Under the pieces are notes generated by a model. It had not been told where the DNA came from. It saw only the letters and a list, made by a program, of their open reading frames with translations, and ran no database searches. Position numbers and translations under genes: made by a program. Shown one piece after another: positions 2,967-10,758 of a stretch of DNA of 64,000 nucleotides. This DNA comes from Solirubrobacteraceae bacterium. GTDB lineage: Bacteria; Actinomycetota; Thermoleophilia; Solirubrobacterales; Solirubrobacteraceae. The DNA is taken from contig DATNBM010000093.1 of assembly GCA_035571915.1 (NCBI GenBank), positions 24,237-88,236 on the forward strand, read 5' to 3'. Each line of letters begins with the position of its first letter. The first letter of the stretch is position 1.

Positions 2967-3026
2967 CGGCTCGTCTGGGAGGACACGACCTTGGAGGGGT
3001 CGGATGTGCGCAGGGAGAGGTTTGTC

Positions 3027-3710
3027 GTGAGCGCCACCGGCCGCAAGCTCGCGGCGGTGATCCTCGCCGTTGTCGCGCTCGGCGCGCTGATCGGCCTCTA
3101 CGTCTCCAGCTGGGCGACGGCGGTCCCGAAGACGATCCCCGGCACGCCGTCCGGCTCCTCGGCGGGCGCGCCGACTACGAGCCTGGTGCTGCAGACCGAC
3201 GCCGCGGTCGGCCCGCAGGAGAGCCCGACTCACCCCGATTGGGTCTCCTACCTCGTCAAGCAGAACGGCCGCTGGGTTCGGAGCACGATCTTCAAGGTCC
3301 CGGCGAACTCGGTCGTGCACGTCACCGTCTACCAGTTCGACGGCGACTCGGGCCTGCGCAACGCGTTCCTCTCGGCGGTGCAGGGGACCGGAGGCGGGGT
3401 CGAGACGGTCGACGGGAAGGCCGTCACCCACATCGACCCCGAAGAAGCCTCCCACACGTTCGTGGTCCCGCAGATGGGCGTGTTCGTGCCACTGCCCGGC
3501 GTCGAAGACGAAGCCAAGAACCAGTGCGAATACGGGCCGTGCGACCCGGCGACGATGGCGCACCGCACGATCGAATTCACCTTCCGTACCGGCAAGAAGG
3601 GTCGCTACCGCTGGCAGTGCTTCGTGCCGTGCGCGGCCGGCACCTACTTCGGCTTCGGCGGCCCGATGCAGACCCTCGGCTACATGGACGGGTACATCGA
3701 TGTCGTCTAG
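3027..3710 (+). CDS. Membrane-anchored cupredoxin-fold protein (oxidase-associated)
   Basis: N-terminal TM, VPANSVVHVTV strand, SHTF His, and C-terminal GRYRWQCFVPC...PM...YMDGYIDV resembling a cupredoxin ligand loop. Overlaps coxB start. Confidence 0.65.
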   Translation: MSATGRKLAAVILAVVALGALIGLYVSSWATAVPKTIPGTPSGSSAGAPTTSLVLQTDAAVGPQESPTHPDWVSYLVKQNGRWVRSTIFKVPANSVVHVTVYQFDGDSGLRNAFLSAVQGTGGGVETVDGKAVTHIDPEEASHTFVVPQMGVFVPLPGVEDEAKNQCEYGPCDPATMAHRTIEFTFRTGKKGRYRWQCFVPCAAGTYFGFGGPMQTLGYMDGYIDVV

Positions 3711-4578
3711 TGGCACACCGGCCGGCGGCGACGCCGTGCCCGGACCGAGCGGCGAGCCCAACCACCTGCGGCGCTTCCTGGCGATCTGGATCGGCTGCTC
3801 CGTGATCGCCACGCCGCTCGTGGCGATCCTGCTCGGCCCGCTGCTGCCGCCCGGGAACGGCAGCGACGCGGCCTCCGGGCAGGTCACCGACAACACGGTC
3901 CTGCTGTCGATGGCGACGCCGGTCCTGCTGCTCGTCGTCGTCTACCTGGTCTACGCGCTGCTCGCGTTCCGCCAGCCGCGGGGCGCGGCGCTCGAAGGGC
4001 CCGCCGTGAGAGGCCACCAGAGCCTGCAGACGCTGTGGATCGTCGTCTCGGGCGTGCTCGTGCTGACGCTCGCCGCCTACGGGACGGTGCGACTGGAGAC
4101 GGGCTACGGCGCGGGCTCGGGCAACGGGCCGAAACCGCTCACCGCGCCGAAGGGCGAAAAGCTCCCCGTTCAGGTGATCGCGCAGCAGTGGGCGTTCACC
4201 TACCGCTACCCGACCTACGGCGGCGTCGAGACGACCCACCTGGAGCTCCCCGTCGGCAAGACGGTCGAACTGCACGTCACCTCGCTCGACGTGATCCACT
4301 CCTTCTGGGCCTACCAGCTCGGCGTCAAGGCCGACGCCAACCCGGGCGTCGACAACGTCGCCTTCGTCAAACCGACGAAGATCGAGACGTTCGAAGTCCA
4401 CTGCGCCGAGCTGTGCGGGATCTGGCACGGCGGCATGTTCGACCACGGCCACGTGGTCAGCGACACGGACTTCGAAAGCTGGATCGCCGAACAGCAGGCA
4501 CGATTCGCCGCGACGACGAAGGCGCTTCCGAAGTACTCCACGACATACACCCCCGAACCGCTGGAGCGAGGCGAATGA
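3700..4578 (+). CDS. coxB: Cytochrome c oxidase subunit II (CuA)
   Basis: QQWAF, DVIHSFW and CAELCGIWHGGM CuA motif; three TM segments. Confidence 0.95.
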   Translation: MSSSGTPAGGDAVPGPSGEPNHLRRFLAIWIGCSVIATPLVAILLGPLLPPGNGSDAASGQVTDNTVLLSMATPVLLLVVVYLVYALLAFRQPRGAALEGPAVRGHQSLQTLWIVVSGVLVLTLAAYGTVRLETGYGAGSGNGPKPLTAPKGEKLPVQVIAQQWAFTYRYPTYGGVETTHLELPVGKTVELHVTSLDVIHSFWAYQLGVKADANPGVDNVAFVKPTKIETFEVHCAELCGIWHGGMFDHGHVVSDTDFESWIAEQQARFAATTKALPKYSTTYTPEPLERGE

Positions 4579-6488
4579 GCGCCACAACGGCAGACGCGGC
4601 GTCCCGTCCCGCCCAGGAGAAGCCCCTGTGGCGGCGGCTGATCGGATTCAACCTCCTGACCGCCGTGATCCTCGGCGTCGGGGGCTACTACCTCGGCTGG
4701 TGGATCGGCCACCTCGTGACCGAAGGGAAAAGCTTCGAATACACCGCCGCCACCGACGAGAACGACGTCGCCCTGCTGCTCGCCTACTTCTTCGGCGTGA
4801 TCGGATTCCTGATCGGGCTCGGCTTCGCGAACTACCCGATCTCGAGGCTGCTCGGCAAGCCCGCGTCGCTGCGCGAGAAAGAGGAGCACGGCATCGGCCG
4901 CTACTTCGGCCTCTGCACGGATCACAAGGTCGTAGGGATCCAATACCTCTGCGGGATCGGCCTGTTCTTCTTCATCGGCGGCCTCAACGCGATGCTGATT
5001 CGGACCGAGCTGCTGCACAGCCAGCCGACCTTCACCGGCCCCAACCAGTACCTCTCACTCGTCGGGATGCACGGCACGATGATGATGGGGATGATGACCT
5101 CGGGGATCCTGGGGCCGTTCGCGAACTACTTCGTCCCGATCATGATCGGCGCCCGGCGGATGGCGTTCCCGCGGATCGAGGCGCTGACGTTCTGGCTGCT
5201 GATGGCGGCCGGCTTCATCCTCACCTCGACGATCTTCTTCGGCGGCTTCCCGACCGGTTGGACGGGCTACGAGCCGCTCAACGACCAGGCGGTGATGGGG
5301 ATGGACTCCTACATCTGCTTCTTCGCCCTGGTCGGCATCTCGATGTGCCTGCTCGGCCTGAACATGATGGCGACGATCATCACGATGCGCGCGCCAGGCC
5401 TGACCTGGTCGCGCCTGCCGATCTTCGTCTGGTCGGTGTTCGCGACCTCCGTGCTGATGGTGCTGGCCGCGCCGATGCTCGTCGCGACGCTGCTGATGGC
5501 GGCCTTCGACCGCACGATCGACACCTCGTTCTTCCTGCCGGCCGGCGGCGGCAGCTCCTACCTGTTCGAGAACCTGTTCTGGTTCTTCGGCCACCCCGAG
5601 GTGTACATCCTCGCCCTGCCCGGCTTCGGCATCGTGCTCGAGCTGCTGCCCGTCTTCACCCGCAAGCCGCTGTGGGGCTACCGCCTCGCGATCTCGGGCA
5701 TGCTCGGGGTCAGCCTGCTGAGCTTCTTCGTCTGGCAGCACCACCTGTTCGTGAGCGGGATCAACGCCGACCTGCGGCCCTTCTACATGCTCTCGACGGA
5801 GATCATCTCGCTGCCGACCGGCTTCATCTTCCTGTGCGTGATGGGCACCCTCTGGAAGGCCCGAACGTCGTTCACCGTGCCGATGCTGTTCTGCATCGGC
5901 TGGGTCTTCAACTTCCTGATCGGCGGACTGTCGGGGGTGTTCCTCTCCGACACCCCGAGTGACACGACCACGCACGGCAGCTTCTTCGTGATGGCCCACT
6001 TCCACTACACGATCATGGGCGGGCTGATCTTCGCCTTCTTCGCCGCGATCTACTACTGGGTCCCGAAGATGCTCGGGGTGAACTTCAACGAGAAACTCGC
6101 CAAGGCTCACTTCTGGCTGATGTTCGTCGCCTTCAACTCGACCTTCATGCCGCTGTTCGTGCTCGGCATGGAGGGCCAGGCGAGGAGGGTTAACTTCTAC
6201 GAACCGAAGTTCCACACGCTGAACGTATGGGTCTCGATCTCGGCGTTCGTGCTCGGCTTCTCGATGCTGATCTTCCTCTACAACACCGTCTACTCGCTGA
6301 TCTTCAAGCGCGAGGTGGCGCTGCAGAACCCGTGGCGCTCGAAGTCGATGGAGTGGCAGGTGGCGACGCCGGTGCCGGTCAACAACTTCGAGCAGATACC
6401 GGTCTTCGACTCCGACCCCTACGACTACGGGACGCCGCTGGTGATCGGCGACACGCGTGTCGGCGGGGCACAGGTCCAGGGAGGCTGA
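4575..6488 (+). CDS. coxA: Heme-copper oxidase subunit I, A-family-like, with 2 extra N-terminal TMs
   Basis: GHPEVY, WQHH, AHFHY ligands; ATG overlaps coxB stop. Confidence 0.95.
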   Translation: MSATTADAASRPAQEKPLWRRLIGFNLLTAVILGVGGYYLGWWIGHLVTEGKSFEYTAATDENDVALLLAYFFGVIGFLIGLGFANYPISRLLGKPASLREKEEHGIGRYFGLCTDHKVVGIQYLCGIGLFFFIGGLNAMLIRTELLHSQPTFTGPNQYLSLVGMHGTMMMGMMTSGILGPFANYFVPIMIGARRMAFPRIEALTFWLLMAAGFILTSTIFFGGFPTGWTGYEPLNDQAVMGMDSYICFFALVGISMCLLGLNMMATIITMRAPGLTWSRLPIFVWSVFATSVLMVLAAPMLVATLLMAAFDRTIDTSFFLPAGGGSSYLFENLFWFFGHPEVYILALPGFGIVLELLPVFTRKPLWGYRLAISGMLGVSLLSFFVWQHHLFVSGINADLRPFYMLSTEIISLPTGFIFLCVMGTLWKARTSFTVPMLFCIGWVFNFLIGGLSGVFLSDTPSDTTTHGSFFVMAHFHYTIMGGLIFAFFAAIYYWVPKMLGVNFNEKLAKAHFWLMFVAFNSTFMPLFVLGMEGQARRVNFYEPKFHTLNVWVSISAFVLGFSMLIFLYNTVYSLIFKREVALQNPWRSKSMEWQVATPVPVNNFEQIPVFDSDPYDYGTPLVIGDTRVGGAQVQGG

Positions 6489-6491
6489 GCG

Positions 6492-7157
6492 ATGGCGCTG
6501 CCGCACGAAGAGAAGCCGCTCGGCCTGCAGATCCCGCCTGTCGCCCCCGGCGTCGAGATCCCGCCCGAGCCGCCAGACGTCGGGGCGCGGGCGCTGTCGG
6601 TCGCCTCGCGCCTGCTGGCCGGCGCGACGACGTTCTTCTTCCTCGCCTTCCTGTTCGCGTACTTCTACCTGCGCTCGATCAACGTTCACCACATGTGGAA
6701 ACCGGCCGGCGTGAAGCCCGACCAGGGCCTCGGCGCGGCGTTCGTGGTGTGCCTGATCCTGAGCGCGCTGCTCGCGGTGCTCGCCGGCCGCGGCATGAAG
6801 GCCCGGGCGGCGGGGTGGCTCAGGCCCGCGATCGCGAGCGTCGGCTTCGGGCTCGCGGCGGTCGCGTTGCAGTGCGTCGAGTACACGAGCCAGAAGTTCG
6901 GGCCCACGAACGGCGCCTACGCGAGCGTCTTCTGCACGTGGACGGCGATGTTCCTGATCGCGGCGCTGTGCGCGATCTACTGGCTCGAGACGCAGGCGGC
7001 GACGGAGCTGCGAGCGAGCCGGGCGCCGGCCGGGACGGAAGGCGACATCGCCGAACCTGACCGCCTGATCGCGCCGGGCCTGGACGCGGCGGTCTTCTAC
7101 TGGAGCTACCTCGCGGCGATCGGCGTGATCACCTACGTGGTGCTCTACCTGCTGTAG
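6492..7157 (+). CDS. coxC: Cytochrome c oxidase subunit III (short form)
   Basis: 5 TMs; FFF..F..YFYLR, GAYAS.F and FYW motifs; operon position. Confidence 0.8.
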   Translation: MALPHEEKPLGLQIPPVAPGVEIPPEPPDVGARALSVASRLLAGATTFFFLAFLFAYFYLRSINVHHMWKPAGVKPDQGLGAAFVVCLILSALLAVLAGRGMKARAAGWLRPAIASVGFGLAAVALQCVEYTSQKFGPTNGAYASVFCTWTAMFLIAALCAIYWLETQAATELRASRAPAGTEGDIAEPDRLIAPGLDAAVFYWSYLAAIGVITYVVLYLL

Positions 7158-8026
7158 TGCTCGCCGCCGCCACTCCCGGCTTCTGGGACTGGTCGCTGGA
7201 CCCGCCGCTGGTGCTCGCCGCGGACCTCGCGATCCTCTACTGGATCGGCGACCGGCGGACCGTCAGGCCACGCCGAACGGCGACGGCGCAGCGCTGGCGC
7301 GACGCCGCCTTCTACGCCTCGATGTTCACCCTGGCCGTCGCGCTGGCCTCGCCGATCGAGCCGCTCAGCGAGCAGCTGTTCTGGGTCCACATGGTCCAGC
7401 ACGTGCTGCTGATGCTCGTCGCGGCGCCGCTGCTGGTCGTCTCGCGGCCCTGGATCAGGCTGTGGCGCTCGCTGCCGCTGGGCGGGCGGCGGCGCCTCGC
7501 GCGGACGCTCGGCACCGACCCGCGCGCGGAGCCGCTGCGCGCCGCGACCCGCGTGCTCGGCTCGCCGGCCGTCTCGCTCGGGCTGTTCTCGGTCGCGCTG
7601 CTCGGCTGGCACGTTCCGGCGATGTTCGAGGCGACGCTCACCTCTGGGACCGTGCACGCGCTCGAGCACACGGCATTCTTCCTCGCCTCGGTCCTCCTGT
7701 TCAAGCAGGTGATCCCCTCGCCGCCGCTGCGGACGCGCCTCTCGGAGGTGCGACGGCTGCTCTACGTCGTCGCGGCGATGACGGTCAGCTGGATCCTCGC
7801 GGTCGTGCTCGCGCTCGCGCCGGAACCGCTCTACAGCCACTACGCAGAGCTCTCCTCACGGCCCTGGGGGATCTCAGCGCTCGGCGACCAGCAGCTCGCG
7901 GCGGGCGTGATGTGGGTTCCGGGATCCGTCACGTTCGTCGTCATCATCTTCGTGTACATCCACCGCTGGCTCGCCCCGCAGACGTCCGCCGCAACGCGGA
8001 CGGCACGGCTCGCGAGCGGGCACTAG
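7157..8026 (+). CDS. ctaG: Cytochrome c oxidase assembly factor CtaG (caa3 type)
   Basis: HMVQHVLL..AAPLL, WH.P, H..EH and DQQLAA..MW motifs. Confidence 0.9.
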   Translation: MLAAATPGFWDWSLDPPLVLAADLAILYWIGDRRTVRPRRTATAQRWRDAAFYASMFTLAVALASPIEPLSEQLFWVHMVQHVLLMLVAAPLLVVSRPWIRLWRSLPLGGRRRLARTLGTDPRAEPLRAATRVLGSPAVSLGLFSVALLGWHVPAMFEATLTSGTVHALEHTAFFLASVLLFKQVIPSPPLRTRLSEVRRLLYVVAAMTVSWILAVVLALAPEPLYSHYAELSSRPWGISALGDQQLAAGVMWVPGSVTFVVIIFVYIHRWLAPQTSAATRTARLASGH

Positions 8027-8196: not shown

Positions 8197-8883
8197 TCAC
8201 CCCGCCGCGAGCTTGGGCGCGTCGTGGGCGATCTCCGAGGGCTGGAAGCTCGACGGGTAGACCGTCGTGAGCAGGCCCCTGCCGCTCACGCCGTAGACGA
8301 GCGCGTCGTGTGAGACGAGCTGCGGCTGACCCGCGTCGCGTTTGGATCCGACCTTCCACGCCGACCACGTGCGGGCCAGTTCGGAGGCGCTGCCGATCAG
8401 GTACTGCAGCCGTCCCGTCAGCCCGTGCTCGCGCACGAAGCGGGCGACCGCCGAGCGCGTGTCGCCGCGCGGGTCGACGGAGATCGCGATCAGCTGTGCG
8501 TCCTTCGCGCGGGACCCCATCATGTTCAACGCGGCGCGCAGGTTCGAGGCGATCAACGGGCAGACGTCGGGGCAGTTCGCGTAGAGGAACGTCACGAACA
8601 CCGCCTTGCCGCGGTACTGCGCGAGCGTGACGGGCCTGCCCAGGTAGTTGCGCAGGTCGATCGCGGGCGCCGCGGCGCGGGGCAGCGTGAGGGTCCCTTC
8701 GTAGCCGCGCCCGGATCCCGCTTCGCGCGCGCCCCCGGGGAGCGTCGAGGAGGACGATCCCGGGCCGATCAGCAGTGCGCTCACCGCCGCCGCGACACCG
8801 AGCAGCGCGAGCAGCGCCAGGGCGAGCGCCGGTCGGGAGACCGAGCGCGCGCCACCGACCTGGTTGCCGCCGTCCTCGCTCAT
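8197..8883 (-). CDS. sco: SCO1/SenC copper chaperone
   Basis: F.Y..CPDVCP, ISVDP..D and conserved His (VSHD); N-terminal anchor. Confidence 0.9.
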   Translation of the reverse strand: MSEDGGNQVGGARSVSRPALALALLALLGVAAAVSALLIGPGSSSSTLPGGAREAGSGRGYEGTLTLPRAAAPAIDLRNYLGRPVTLAQYRGKAVFVTFLYANCPDVCPLIASNLRAALNMMGSRAKDAQLIAISVDPRGDTRSAVARFVREHGLTGRLQYLIGSASELARTWSAWKVGSKRDAGQPQLVSHDALVYGVSGRGLLTTVYPSSFQPSEIAHDAPKLAAG

Positions 8884-9914: not shown

Positions 9915-10700
9915 CTACTGCAGCAGCTTCAGGACAGCGTCCGGAAGGTGGTTCGCCTGGGCGAGAATCGCCACGCCGGCCTGCTGAAGGACCTGGTCCT
10001 TGGTGAACTGGGTCATTTCGGAGGCCATGTTGACGTCGACGATCTGGCTGACAGCCGAAGAGAGGTTCTGGCTGTAGACTTCCAGGTTGGTCGCGGTGTA
10101 CTGGATGCGGTTCTGCACCGCACCGTATTCACCGGCGGCCTTCGTCACTTTGTCGAGCGCTTCGTCGATCGTTTTGACTTCGGTGACCGACGCTTTTTCG
10201 ACGGCGCCTTTGAGTTCGATCGTTTTGACGGCAACGGTTTCTTTTTCGTTGGCGCCGACCTGGAACTTGATTTCTTCGCCACCTTCGAGGAGTTTCACGC
10301 CGTTGAAGGTCGTCGTTTCACCGACGCGCGTGATCTCTTCTTTGAGCTGTTCGGTCTCCTGTTCGATGGCTTCCTTGTCGGTTTCCGACGTGGTGCCGTT
10401 GGCGTACTGCACCCCGAGCTCGCGGACGCGCTGGAGCATCCCGACGACATCGTTGAGCGCGCCCTGAGCGGTCTGGGCGAGCGAGACGGCGTCCGAGATG
10501 TTCTGCGTCGCCTGGTTCAGGCCGCTGACCTGGCCCTTCAGGCGCTCGGAGATCGCGTAGCCGGCGACGTCGTCGGCGGCCGAGTTGATGCGCAGACCCG
10601 AAGACAGGCGCTGCATCGCGGTACCGAGCATGTTCTCGGTGTTGTTCAGGTTCCTCGCGGCATCCATCGCCTCGAGGTTTGTGTTCACTGTCAGGCCCAT
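9915..10700 (-). CDS. fliC: Flagellin (minimal, 261 aa)
   Basis: MQRLSSGLRINSAADD, FNG.KLL, FQVGAN, GAVQNR, ASEM and LAQAN; AAGGAG RBS. Confidence 0.98.
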   Translation of the reverse strand: MGLTVNTNLEAMDAARNLNNTENMLGTAMQRLSSGLRINSAADDVAGYAISERLKGQVSGLNQATQNISDAVSLAQTAQGALNDVVGMLQRVRELGVQYANGTTSETDKEAIEQETEQLKEEITRVGETTTFNGVKLLEGGEEIKFQVGANEKETVAVKTIELKGAVEKASVTEVKTIDEALDKVTKAAGEYGAVQNRIQYTATNLEVYSQNLSSAVSQIVDVNMASEMTQFTKDQVLQQAGVAILAQANHLPDAVLKLLQ

Positions 10701-10704
10701 TCGT

Positions 10705-10758
10705 TCATCTCCTTGATGACGGTGGTTATGTGGTCCCGTGACCGACTCCATGTCGGTC
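10705..10758 (-). promoter_or_regulatory. Two CsrA-binding hairpins in the fliC leader
   Basis: GACCGAC-ATGGA-GTCGGTC and TCATC-AAGGA-GATGA, the second on the SD. Confidence 0.8.

Follow-up and report, generated by a model that had tools for sequence, protein, structure and literature searches.

The oxidase operon and its conservation

The stretch of DNA analysed in the present study (64,000 nt; Solirubrobacteraceae bacterium GCA_035571915.1, contig DATNBM010000093.1, positions 24,237-88,236 of the forward strand; hereafter the window) harbors the operon cupX-cox2-cox1-cox3-ctaG, encoding an A-family heme-copper oxidase whose proton-channel entries differ from the canonical ones. The operon spans 2991-8026 on the plus strand, and the ends of its genes overlap or nearly touch. 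The first gene, cupX (2991-3710), encodes a putative cupredoxin-fold, membrane-anchored protein and overlaps the start of cox2 (3700-4578), which encodes subunit II (292 amino acids; Pfam COX2, 3.8e-13; alignment to 2yev_B). The ATG of cox1 (4575-6488; subunit I, 637 amino acids; Pfam COX1, 1.7e-123, residues 120-559) overlaps the cox2 stop codon as ATGA. It is followed by cox3 (6492-7157), encoding a short form of subunit III (221 amino acids) with helices III-VII and a weak Pfam COX3 match, and by ctaG (7157-8026), encoding a Caa3_CtaG copper-insertion factor (Pfam, 4.2e-54).

The window has a G+C content of 70%, and its source genome comprises 3.26 Mb at 82% completeness. The closest public relatives are soil metagenome-assembled genomes (MAGs), all of Solirubrobacteraceae or Solirubrobacterales. 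A scan of species-representative genomes returned 570 related stretches, and the ortholog counts reported here use the best 80 of these (79-91% identical), which belong to Solirubrobacterales throughout. Gene order was constant among them, with cupX-cox2-cox1 in 80/80 loci, cox3 added in 79/80, and ctaG in 69/80.

Catalytic centre and channel residues of subunit I

Residues are given in Rhodobacter sphaeroides numbering (D132, N139, K362, etc.) beside the numbering of cox1 itself, based on a pairwise alignment to Mycobacterium smegmatis CtaD (6adq_F) and a 152-sequence alignment. CtaD was the best solved match of cox1 (E 1.9e-125), and the alignments to PDB sequences begin at residue 113-114. 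Hydropathy analysis placed two hydrophobic segments (about 22-40 and 65-83) before the first canonical helix, which begins near residue 119, in agreement with the two extra N-terminal transmembrane helices proposed in a preliminary description of this DNA. All six His ligands of heme a, heme a3, and CuB are intact (H166, H340, H389, H390, H475, and H477), and the A1 motif GHPEVY lies at 339-344 with Glu342 (E286) and Tyr344 (Y288), as had been noted earlier; the motif is kept in 80/80 orthologues, the Tyr cross-link itself being invisible in sequence. The positions Y33, N121, S200, N207, E286, Y288, T352, and T359 are also kept. As read from these alignments, the catalytic centre is complete and of the A type, and the interior of the D channel is retained, with only its mouth rebuilt.

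These ligands bear on the possibility that the protein is a nitric oxide reductase (NOR) or another heme-copper enzyme with lost proton channels. Such a reading could account for the channel changes, since cNOR and qNOR have no conserved proton channels and some new NOR families carry a relocated Glu in the K-channel region (PMC11214002). The defining feature of O2 reductases is the cross-linked Tyr, absent from NOR families (PMC11214002). The window protein has a Tyr of the cross-linked type in GHPEVY, conserved in all orthologues, together with the three CuB His ligands, and its nearest solved relatives are aa3 oxidases (E 1e-125), so this reading was rejected as very improbable.

The replaced residues fall at functionally central positions. 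At the mouth of the D channel, 'igarrmafprieal' of cox1 aligns with 'igapdvafprlnal' of 6adq_F, placing Arg195 of Arg194-Arg195 (5154-5159) at the entry Asp (D132) and Glu202 (5178-5180) at the 'neck' Asn (N139). In helix VIII (E409-I-I-S412-L-P-T415-G-F-I418; 5799-5828), 'steiislptgfif' aligns with 'tfliavptgikff', giving Glu at 353 (M353->E409), Ser at 356 (A356->S412), and Ile in place of the K-channel lysine (K362->I418), with Thr359 kept; S299->L355 and S365->C421 also lie on the K path. The pair 'thgsffvmahfhy'/'vtdsyfviahfhy' covers His467-Gly468 (5973-5978), where Mg-site enzymes have His-Asp (H411-D412), hence D412->G468. A further substitution is S201->M257. The earlier assignments of Arg at D132, Glu at N139, loss of K362 with a new Glu upstream of it, and HG for the Mg-site HD are thus borne out.

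The substituted residues are themselves conserved. The mouth pattern RR..E was found in 79/80 loci, the helix VIII pattern E..S..T..I/V in 80/80, and HG in 80/80, so the expectation that close homologs keep the substitutions was confirmed, and the changes in subunits I, II, and III are coordinated. At the nucleotide level, five synonymous Arg codons occur among the orthologues at R194 and four at R195, and the Glu202 codon is GAG in all 80 motif-bearing sequences (window plus orthologues). The median ratio of nonsynonymous to synonymous substitution rates (dN/dS) was 0.21 for cox1 and 0.35-0.43 for the other four operon genes, indicating purifying selection.

A genome with other oxidases might tolerate a decaying or neutrally drifting spare paralogue that has lost its channel residues, and two other A-family oxidases with canonical channels are present here. 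Both lie on contig C103: a canonical A1 oxidase (L001) with D, N, K, and the subunit II Glu, and a partial A2-type (HPAVY) oxidase (L003) with two extra helices and D, N, and K intact. Because the genome also has these two copies with D, N, and K, the window enzyme is better read as a specialised third oxidase than as a decaying one. Moreover, its frames are intact, 80 species-level genomes share its operon order, cox1 has the low dN/dS given above, the metal ligands are invariant, and the substituted residues are conserved through synonymous codon turnover. Decay is therefore most improbable, and the pseudogene reading was rejected together with that of a NOR.

Distribution and repeated origin of the Arg/Glu mouth

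The subclade of Arg/Glu sequences around the window enzyme reaches down to about 52-55% identity (P0128, P0500, and P0502). P0128, a 55% identical Arg/Glu homologue, runs into Arg/Pro-rich nonsense after about residue 470, probably owing to a frameshift in the source assembly. The same pair occurs in two further settings, namely P0249 and P0271, a COX1-COX3 fusion of a Thermoplasmataceae archaeon that is 37% identical to the window protein and whose roughly 40%-identical neighbours are all Asp/Asn, and P0470, which stands beside Alicyclobacillus-type sequences. Forcing the Solirubrobacterales and archaeal Arg/Glu rows into a single clade cost 136.8 log-likelihood units (approximately unbiased test, p-AU 8.6e-07). 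On the 63-row tree, the fewest changes that explain the distribution are three (Solirubrobacterales, P0470, and the Thermoplasmataceae archaeon); this tree was built with FastTree, which is less reliable than IQ-TREE, and the branches relevant to the count have support of 96-100. On these trees the Arg/Glu mouth is convergent, with at least three origins.

When the bacterial and archaeal Arg/Glu lineages were each compared with their sisters, positions 132 and 139 were the sole otherwise invariant columns in which both lineages had changed to identical residues. In the roughly 500 sequences read, the mouth was Asp/Asn in 197+77, Arg/Glu in about 140, and Gly/Glu in one (P0150), and neither Asp132 with Glu139 nor Arg132 with Asn139 was found. 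The D-channel interior (Y33, N121, S200, N207, and E286) is kept in all Arg/Glu lineages except for N121->H in P0470.

Several other positions differ in these lineages. Residue 160 of cox1 (window about 5052-5054) corresponds to the Asn six residues before the heme a His in Y-N-x-x-x-T-x-H-G, on the outer side of helix II; this Asn is invariant in the comparison sequences, but the bacterial Arg/Glu clade has Leu or Ile here and the archaeal clade has Ser. At residues 175-176 (about 5097-5102), the Solirubrobacterales clade has Thr-Ser in helix II where canonical enzymes have Val, Met, or Ile, and the S201->Met change at residue 257 (about 5343-5345) accompanies this gain. Judging from the alignment, the two together may re-line the middle of the D channel.

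A pattern scan across the phylum detected the exact motif RRMAFPR[IV]E in 4/401 genomes. One of the four (G218), an 88%-complete MAG of another family, has its near-identical Arg/Glu oxidase (L085) on a 3-kb contig (C359), with Arg at the entry-Glu position of the adjoining cox2; its presence there reflects either transfer or mis-binning.

No prior description of a natural Arg/Glu D-channel mouth was found in the searchable literature, outside which lie most subscription journals (including Degli Esposti 2020, BBA); as far as can be searched, the variant is undescribed.

Membership of a lysine-less clade and the K channel

The loss of the K-channel lysine places the window enzyme beside a known group. 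The '2TM' clade of COX1 is marked by two extra N-terminal helices and PEVY (bioRxiv 10.1101/2020.03.01.968255; PMC8239418, Degli Esposti et al.), with Ile, Val, or a similar residue in place of the K-channel Lys, a replaced entry Glu in COX2, and a linked Caa3_CtaG (bioRxiv 10.1101/2020.03.01.968255; PMC8239418). Its members include the rus-operon oxidases of acidophilic iron oxidisers (Acidithiobacillus, Acidiferrobacter, and Acidihalobacter) and sequences from MAGs of Actinobacteria, Chloroflexi, and others (PMC8239418). The window enzyme shows each of these traits, namely the extra helices with PEVY, Ile418 with Gln110 of subunit II, and a Caa3_CtaG gene in the cluster.

Phylogenetic analysis agreed with this assignment. 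In an IQ-TREE analysis of 46 rows, the window cox1 fell in a nine-row clade (Shimodaira-Hasegawa-like approximate likelihood ratio test, SH-aLRT, 99) with P0122, P0123, and P0143. The nearest sisters, P0122 and P0123, have an Asp/Asn mouth and are 46-47% identical to the window cox1, and the P0143 cluster contains Acidiferrobacter thiooxydans WP_065972084, an accession present in the published 2TM table. In the FastTree analysis of 63 rows, a 28-row clade (support 99) adds Acidithiobacillus ferriphilus, two Acidihalobacter species, and Alicyclobacillus tolerans. The likeness to CoxA of acidophilic iron oxidisers, which the preliminary description had suggested, is thus borne out by a grouping, with strong support, with the enzymes of Acidiferrobacter, Acidithiobacillus, Acidihalobacter, and Alicyclobacillus. 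Because the window cox1 groups in the published lysine-less clade, nothing in the K-channel part of the observation is new: loss of the lysine and of the subunit II Glu, the two extra helices, and the CtaG linkage have all been published. By its sequence, the window enzyme belongs to a known clade that has received little biochemical study.

For the D channel of the 2TM clade, the published view is that it is essentially conserved, with no significant change (bioRxiv 10.1101/2020.03.01.968255). The sequences of the named acidophiles read otherwise. COX1 of Acidithiobacillus ferriphilus has N121->Y, D132->N, and N139->L, that of Acidiferrobacter has N121->Y, D132->T/N, and N139->L, and the Acidihalobacter enzymes have the mouths (132/139) Q/M and S/G, while other clade members have K/S (Alicyclobacillus), R/S (P0481), T/S, and E/S. 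The acidophile sequences P0431, P0143, P0426, P0438, and P0442 have neither D132 nor N139, and N121->Y occurs in three of the four genera-level examples. Contrary to the 2020 preprint, the acidophile enzymes named here have, in the aligned sequences, no D132 and no N139.

A pattern linking the two channels emerged from 138 representatives of clusters at 50% identity. All 26 representatives with non-Asp/Asn mouths were lysine-less, and all 68 lysine-bearing ones with filled mouth columns were Asp/Asn, an association that is a pattern and not a statistical test, since relatives are non-independent. The canonical K path of the window enzyme is hydrophobic from Thr359 (Thr415) downward, with I418, C421, and L355, plus Q110 in subunit II. 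In the lysine-less groups, bacterial and archaeal alike, loss of the lysine goes with Glu353 and Ser356, and Glu353 was present in 36/138 representatives, never together with Lys362. Two roles considered for Glu409 were rejected. As compensation for the lost Mg ligand Asp412 it fails, given that Glu353 is present where Asp412 is kept (P0470, P0489, and others); as a same-face substitute for Lys362 it is poorly placed, the two positions being nine residues apart and, on an ideal helix, an estimated 180 degrees or so around the axis, on opposite faces. More speculatively, Glu409/Ser412 on helix VIII may serve a route supplying the protons normally given by the K channel.

Subunits II and III, cupX, and electron input

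In subunit II, 'hqslqtlw' aligns with 'gndrlevvw' of Thermus thermophilus caa3 subunit II, identifying Gln110 (4027-4029) as the residue at the K-channel entry Glu (E101 in R. sphaeroides, E78 in Paracoccus denitrificans), as the preliminary description had it. Gln110 also pairs with the Glu of the genome's own canonical cox2 paralogue, and Gln occupies this position in 75/81 rows of the alignment (query plus 80 orthologues). The CuA site is complete (H200, C235, E237, C239, H243, and M246), and its motif, H-x34-C-x-E-x-C-x3-H-x2-M at 200-246, is kept in 76/80 orthologues. The cox2 of the canonical L001 oxidase was seen to read C-A-V-L-C, with Val in place of the Glu of the CuA/Mg motif. In subunit III, Thr46 aligns with Glu90 of the mammalian protein (7o37_c), confirming the claimed absence of the subunit III Glu, although cox3 lies just outside the range 3700-6488 that the claim had covered. 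No cytochrome c (heme c) domain is present in the window cox2, and no gene for a cytochrome c in the operon; the genome has four domains of c-type cytochromes, all on other contigs.

The product of cupX combines a membrane anchor with a beta-rich domain, and its gene lies directly upstream of cox2 in 80/80 related loci. It has no Pfam match and no match to PDB sequences in profile searches. Its AlphaFold model (mean predicted local distance difference test score, pLDDT, 64) gave fold matches at E 5e-5 to 1e-3, of moderate confidence, to ba3 and caa3 subunit II, rusticyanin, and the CuA domain of N2O reductase. The invariant residues are H155, C179, C184, C210-x3-C214, M226, and M232. The copper loop lacks a second His, so the site is neither a classical type 1 nor a CuA site. 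The cupX product may be a partner of the oxidase or its electron entry point. Elsewhere in the comparison set, P0257, a 1035-residue archaeal lysine-less COX1, carries a precomputed Pfam sulfocyanin (SoxE, PF06525) domain, so that a cupredoxin appears, from the annotated sequence, to be fused to subunit I.

Outside the operon, valS lies upstream on the minus strand, and a gene for a SCO1/SenC copper chaperone (8197-8883, minus strand; Pfam, 6e-21) is convergent with the operon, a SCO1/SenC gene being a neighbour in 36/80 loci. A flagellin gene was observed beyond the oxidase locus at 9915-10751 (minus strand), and the order valS, oxidase operon, sco1, CHAP-like open reading frame, and fliC recurs in many related MAGs.

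A proposed relocation of the D-channel proton acceptor

The behaviour of engineered enzymes offers a frame for these substitutions. In R. sphaeroides, D132N nearly abolishes turnover, and N139D keeps or raises turnover but abolishes proton pumping (PMC7196763). The D132N/N139D double mutant regains full proton pumping, and the P. denitrificans counterpart of the change at position 139 is N131D (PMC7196763). In the window enzyme, the proton-accepting carboxylate would have shifted from position 132 in the surface loop (Arg195) to position 139 in helix III (Glu202), seven residues inward, and the old D channel would go on delivering protons to Glu342, as it does in the engineered D132N/N139D enzyme. 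Selection would act against acids at both 132 and 139, given the uncoupling seen in the N139D single mutant.

The best explanation as a whole, to which we assign a probability of roughly 0.55, is that the operon encodes a working, CuA-fed, O2-reducing oxidase of the A family, one of three A-family oxidases in the genome, as its gene content and conserved ligands suggest. Within it, the relocation of the proton acceptor to Glu202, with the D channel still in use, is somewhat favoured, judging from the sequence comparisons and the analogy with the mutants. It is favoured because an acid occurs at 139 only where there is none at 132, no intermediates are seen, the pair arose repeatedly, and the interior and Glu286 are conserved. 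The earlier proposal that the D-channel acid moved to position 139 therefore holds as far as the retained interior, the repeated origin, the absence of half-way states, and the pumping of D132N/N139D go; the move itself is read from sequence comparison.

Several points weigh against the relocation. Arg differs from Asn in its positive charge, which, at the mouth, could form a pair with Glu202 and shut the channel. Other clade members have no mouth acid at all (N/L, T/L, Q/M, S/G, K/S, R/S, and T/S), and a mouth acid may, by these sequences, be dispensable in the 2TM lysine-less clade. The non-Asp/Asn mouths are all in lysine-less enzymes, which fits relaxed constraint equally well; either loss of the lysine route alters the demands on the D-channel mouth or the clade has another entry. 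In addition, the public sequencing runs listed are DNA only, from soil, wetland, and groundwater, with no RNA run among them.

Some of these points are gathered in a rival explanation, which we regard as unlikely but by no means negligible, namely that the mouth is closed or irrelevant. Arg195 and Glu202 would then form a salt-bridge cap, O2 would be reduced without pumping or with lowered coupling, and protons would arrive by another route, perhaps Glu409/Ser412 or the extra helices. Carboxylate-free mouths are indeed common in the same clade, including the enzymes of iron oxidisers; a basic residue at 132 exists without an acid at 139 (Alicyclobacillus and P0481); the mouth variants among the representatives are lysine-less without exception; and every loss of the lysine is accompanied by the gain of Glu353 and Ser356. 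At low pH, Fe(II) oxidation yields too little energy to drive pumping, and non-pumping relatives are plausible on these thermodynamic grounds. On the other hand, it is the exact Arg+Glu pair that recurs three times, and not any neutral pair; Glu139 never occurs with Asp132, as a functional, charge-sensitive channel predicts; and the D-channel interior and Glu342 are still conserved. Furthermore, soil Solirubrobacteraceae are not, to our knowledge, known as iron-oxidising acidophiles.

If the relocated acceptor is combined with the helix VIII residues, the enzyme could represent a third proton-input architecture of the A family, in which the Arg132/Glu139 mouth, recurrent and favoured by natural selection, keeps a pumping D channel and Glu353/Ser356 form part of a substitute K route. 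This combined proposal is tentative and, on the sequences at hand, rather doubtful; if true, the enzyme would be a natural test bed for how mouth charge tunes Glu286 and the coupling of pumping to chemistry.

The residues D132, N139, and K362 are central to how O2 chemistry is coupled to proton pumping, and nearly all work on them has used engineered mutants. If the relocation is correct, the 'recoupling' swap would have evolved at least three times, in no case through an uncoupling intermediate. Fixation of the Arg/Glu swap extends over at least 80 species-level soil genomes in an abundant, poorly cultured actinobacterial family, and the window oxidase offers a natural enzyme in which H+/e- and the pKa of Glu286 could be measured. 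Moreover, the confinement of mouth variation to lysine-less oxidases links the two channels in evolutionary terms, and the acidophile sequences correct the published statement of a canonical D channel in those enzymes.

Comparison with known systems

Compared with the canonical A1 aa3 oxidases (6adq_F and L001), the window enzyme is about 40% identical over 500 residues and shares the same ligands, Tyr, Glu286, and D-channel interior. It differs in having two extra helices and in the replacement of Asp132, Asn139, Lys362, Ser299, and the subunit II Glu, such that the two canonical channels are represented by Arg195/Glu202 in place of Asp132/Asn139 and by Ile418/Gln110 in place of Lys362 and the subunit II Glu.

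With the 2TM clade, the window enzyme has in common the helix VIII pattern T-E-x-x-S-x-P-T-G. The mouths are unlike, being Arg/Glu in the window, whereas position 132 of the acidophile enzymes is Asn, Thr, Gln, or Ser and position 139 is Leu, Met, or Gly. Solirubrobacterales were listed only for a different, lysine-bearing 2TM form (Degli Esposti papers), and this paralogue is also present in the same genome as L003. The rus-operon oxidases are accompanied by cyc2, cyc1, and rusticyanin, none of which is in the window operon; the locus instead consists of cupX-cox2-cox1-cox3-ctaG flanked by valS and sco1.

On the side of electron input, the closest parallel to cupX is AcoP, a membrane-associated green cupredoxin partner of the Acidithiobacillus ferrooxidans oxidase with the classical ligands H85, C159, H166, and M171 (PMC4059628). 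Both appear to be cupredoxin-fold proteins associated with an oxidase of the same clade, but cupX has His155, C-x3-C, two Met, and no loop His, and no sequence similarity between the two was detected.

Finally, the D132N/N139D mutant resembles the natural enzyme in that the carboxylate is taken from 132 and placed at 139, and acids at both positions, which uncouple the enzyme in N139D, were not found in any natural sequence read. The natural enzyme differs in having Arg instead of Asn at 132, Glu instead of Asp at 139, and no K-channel lysine.

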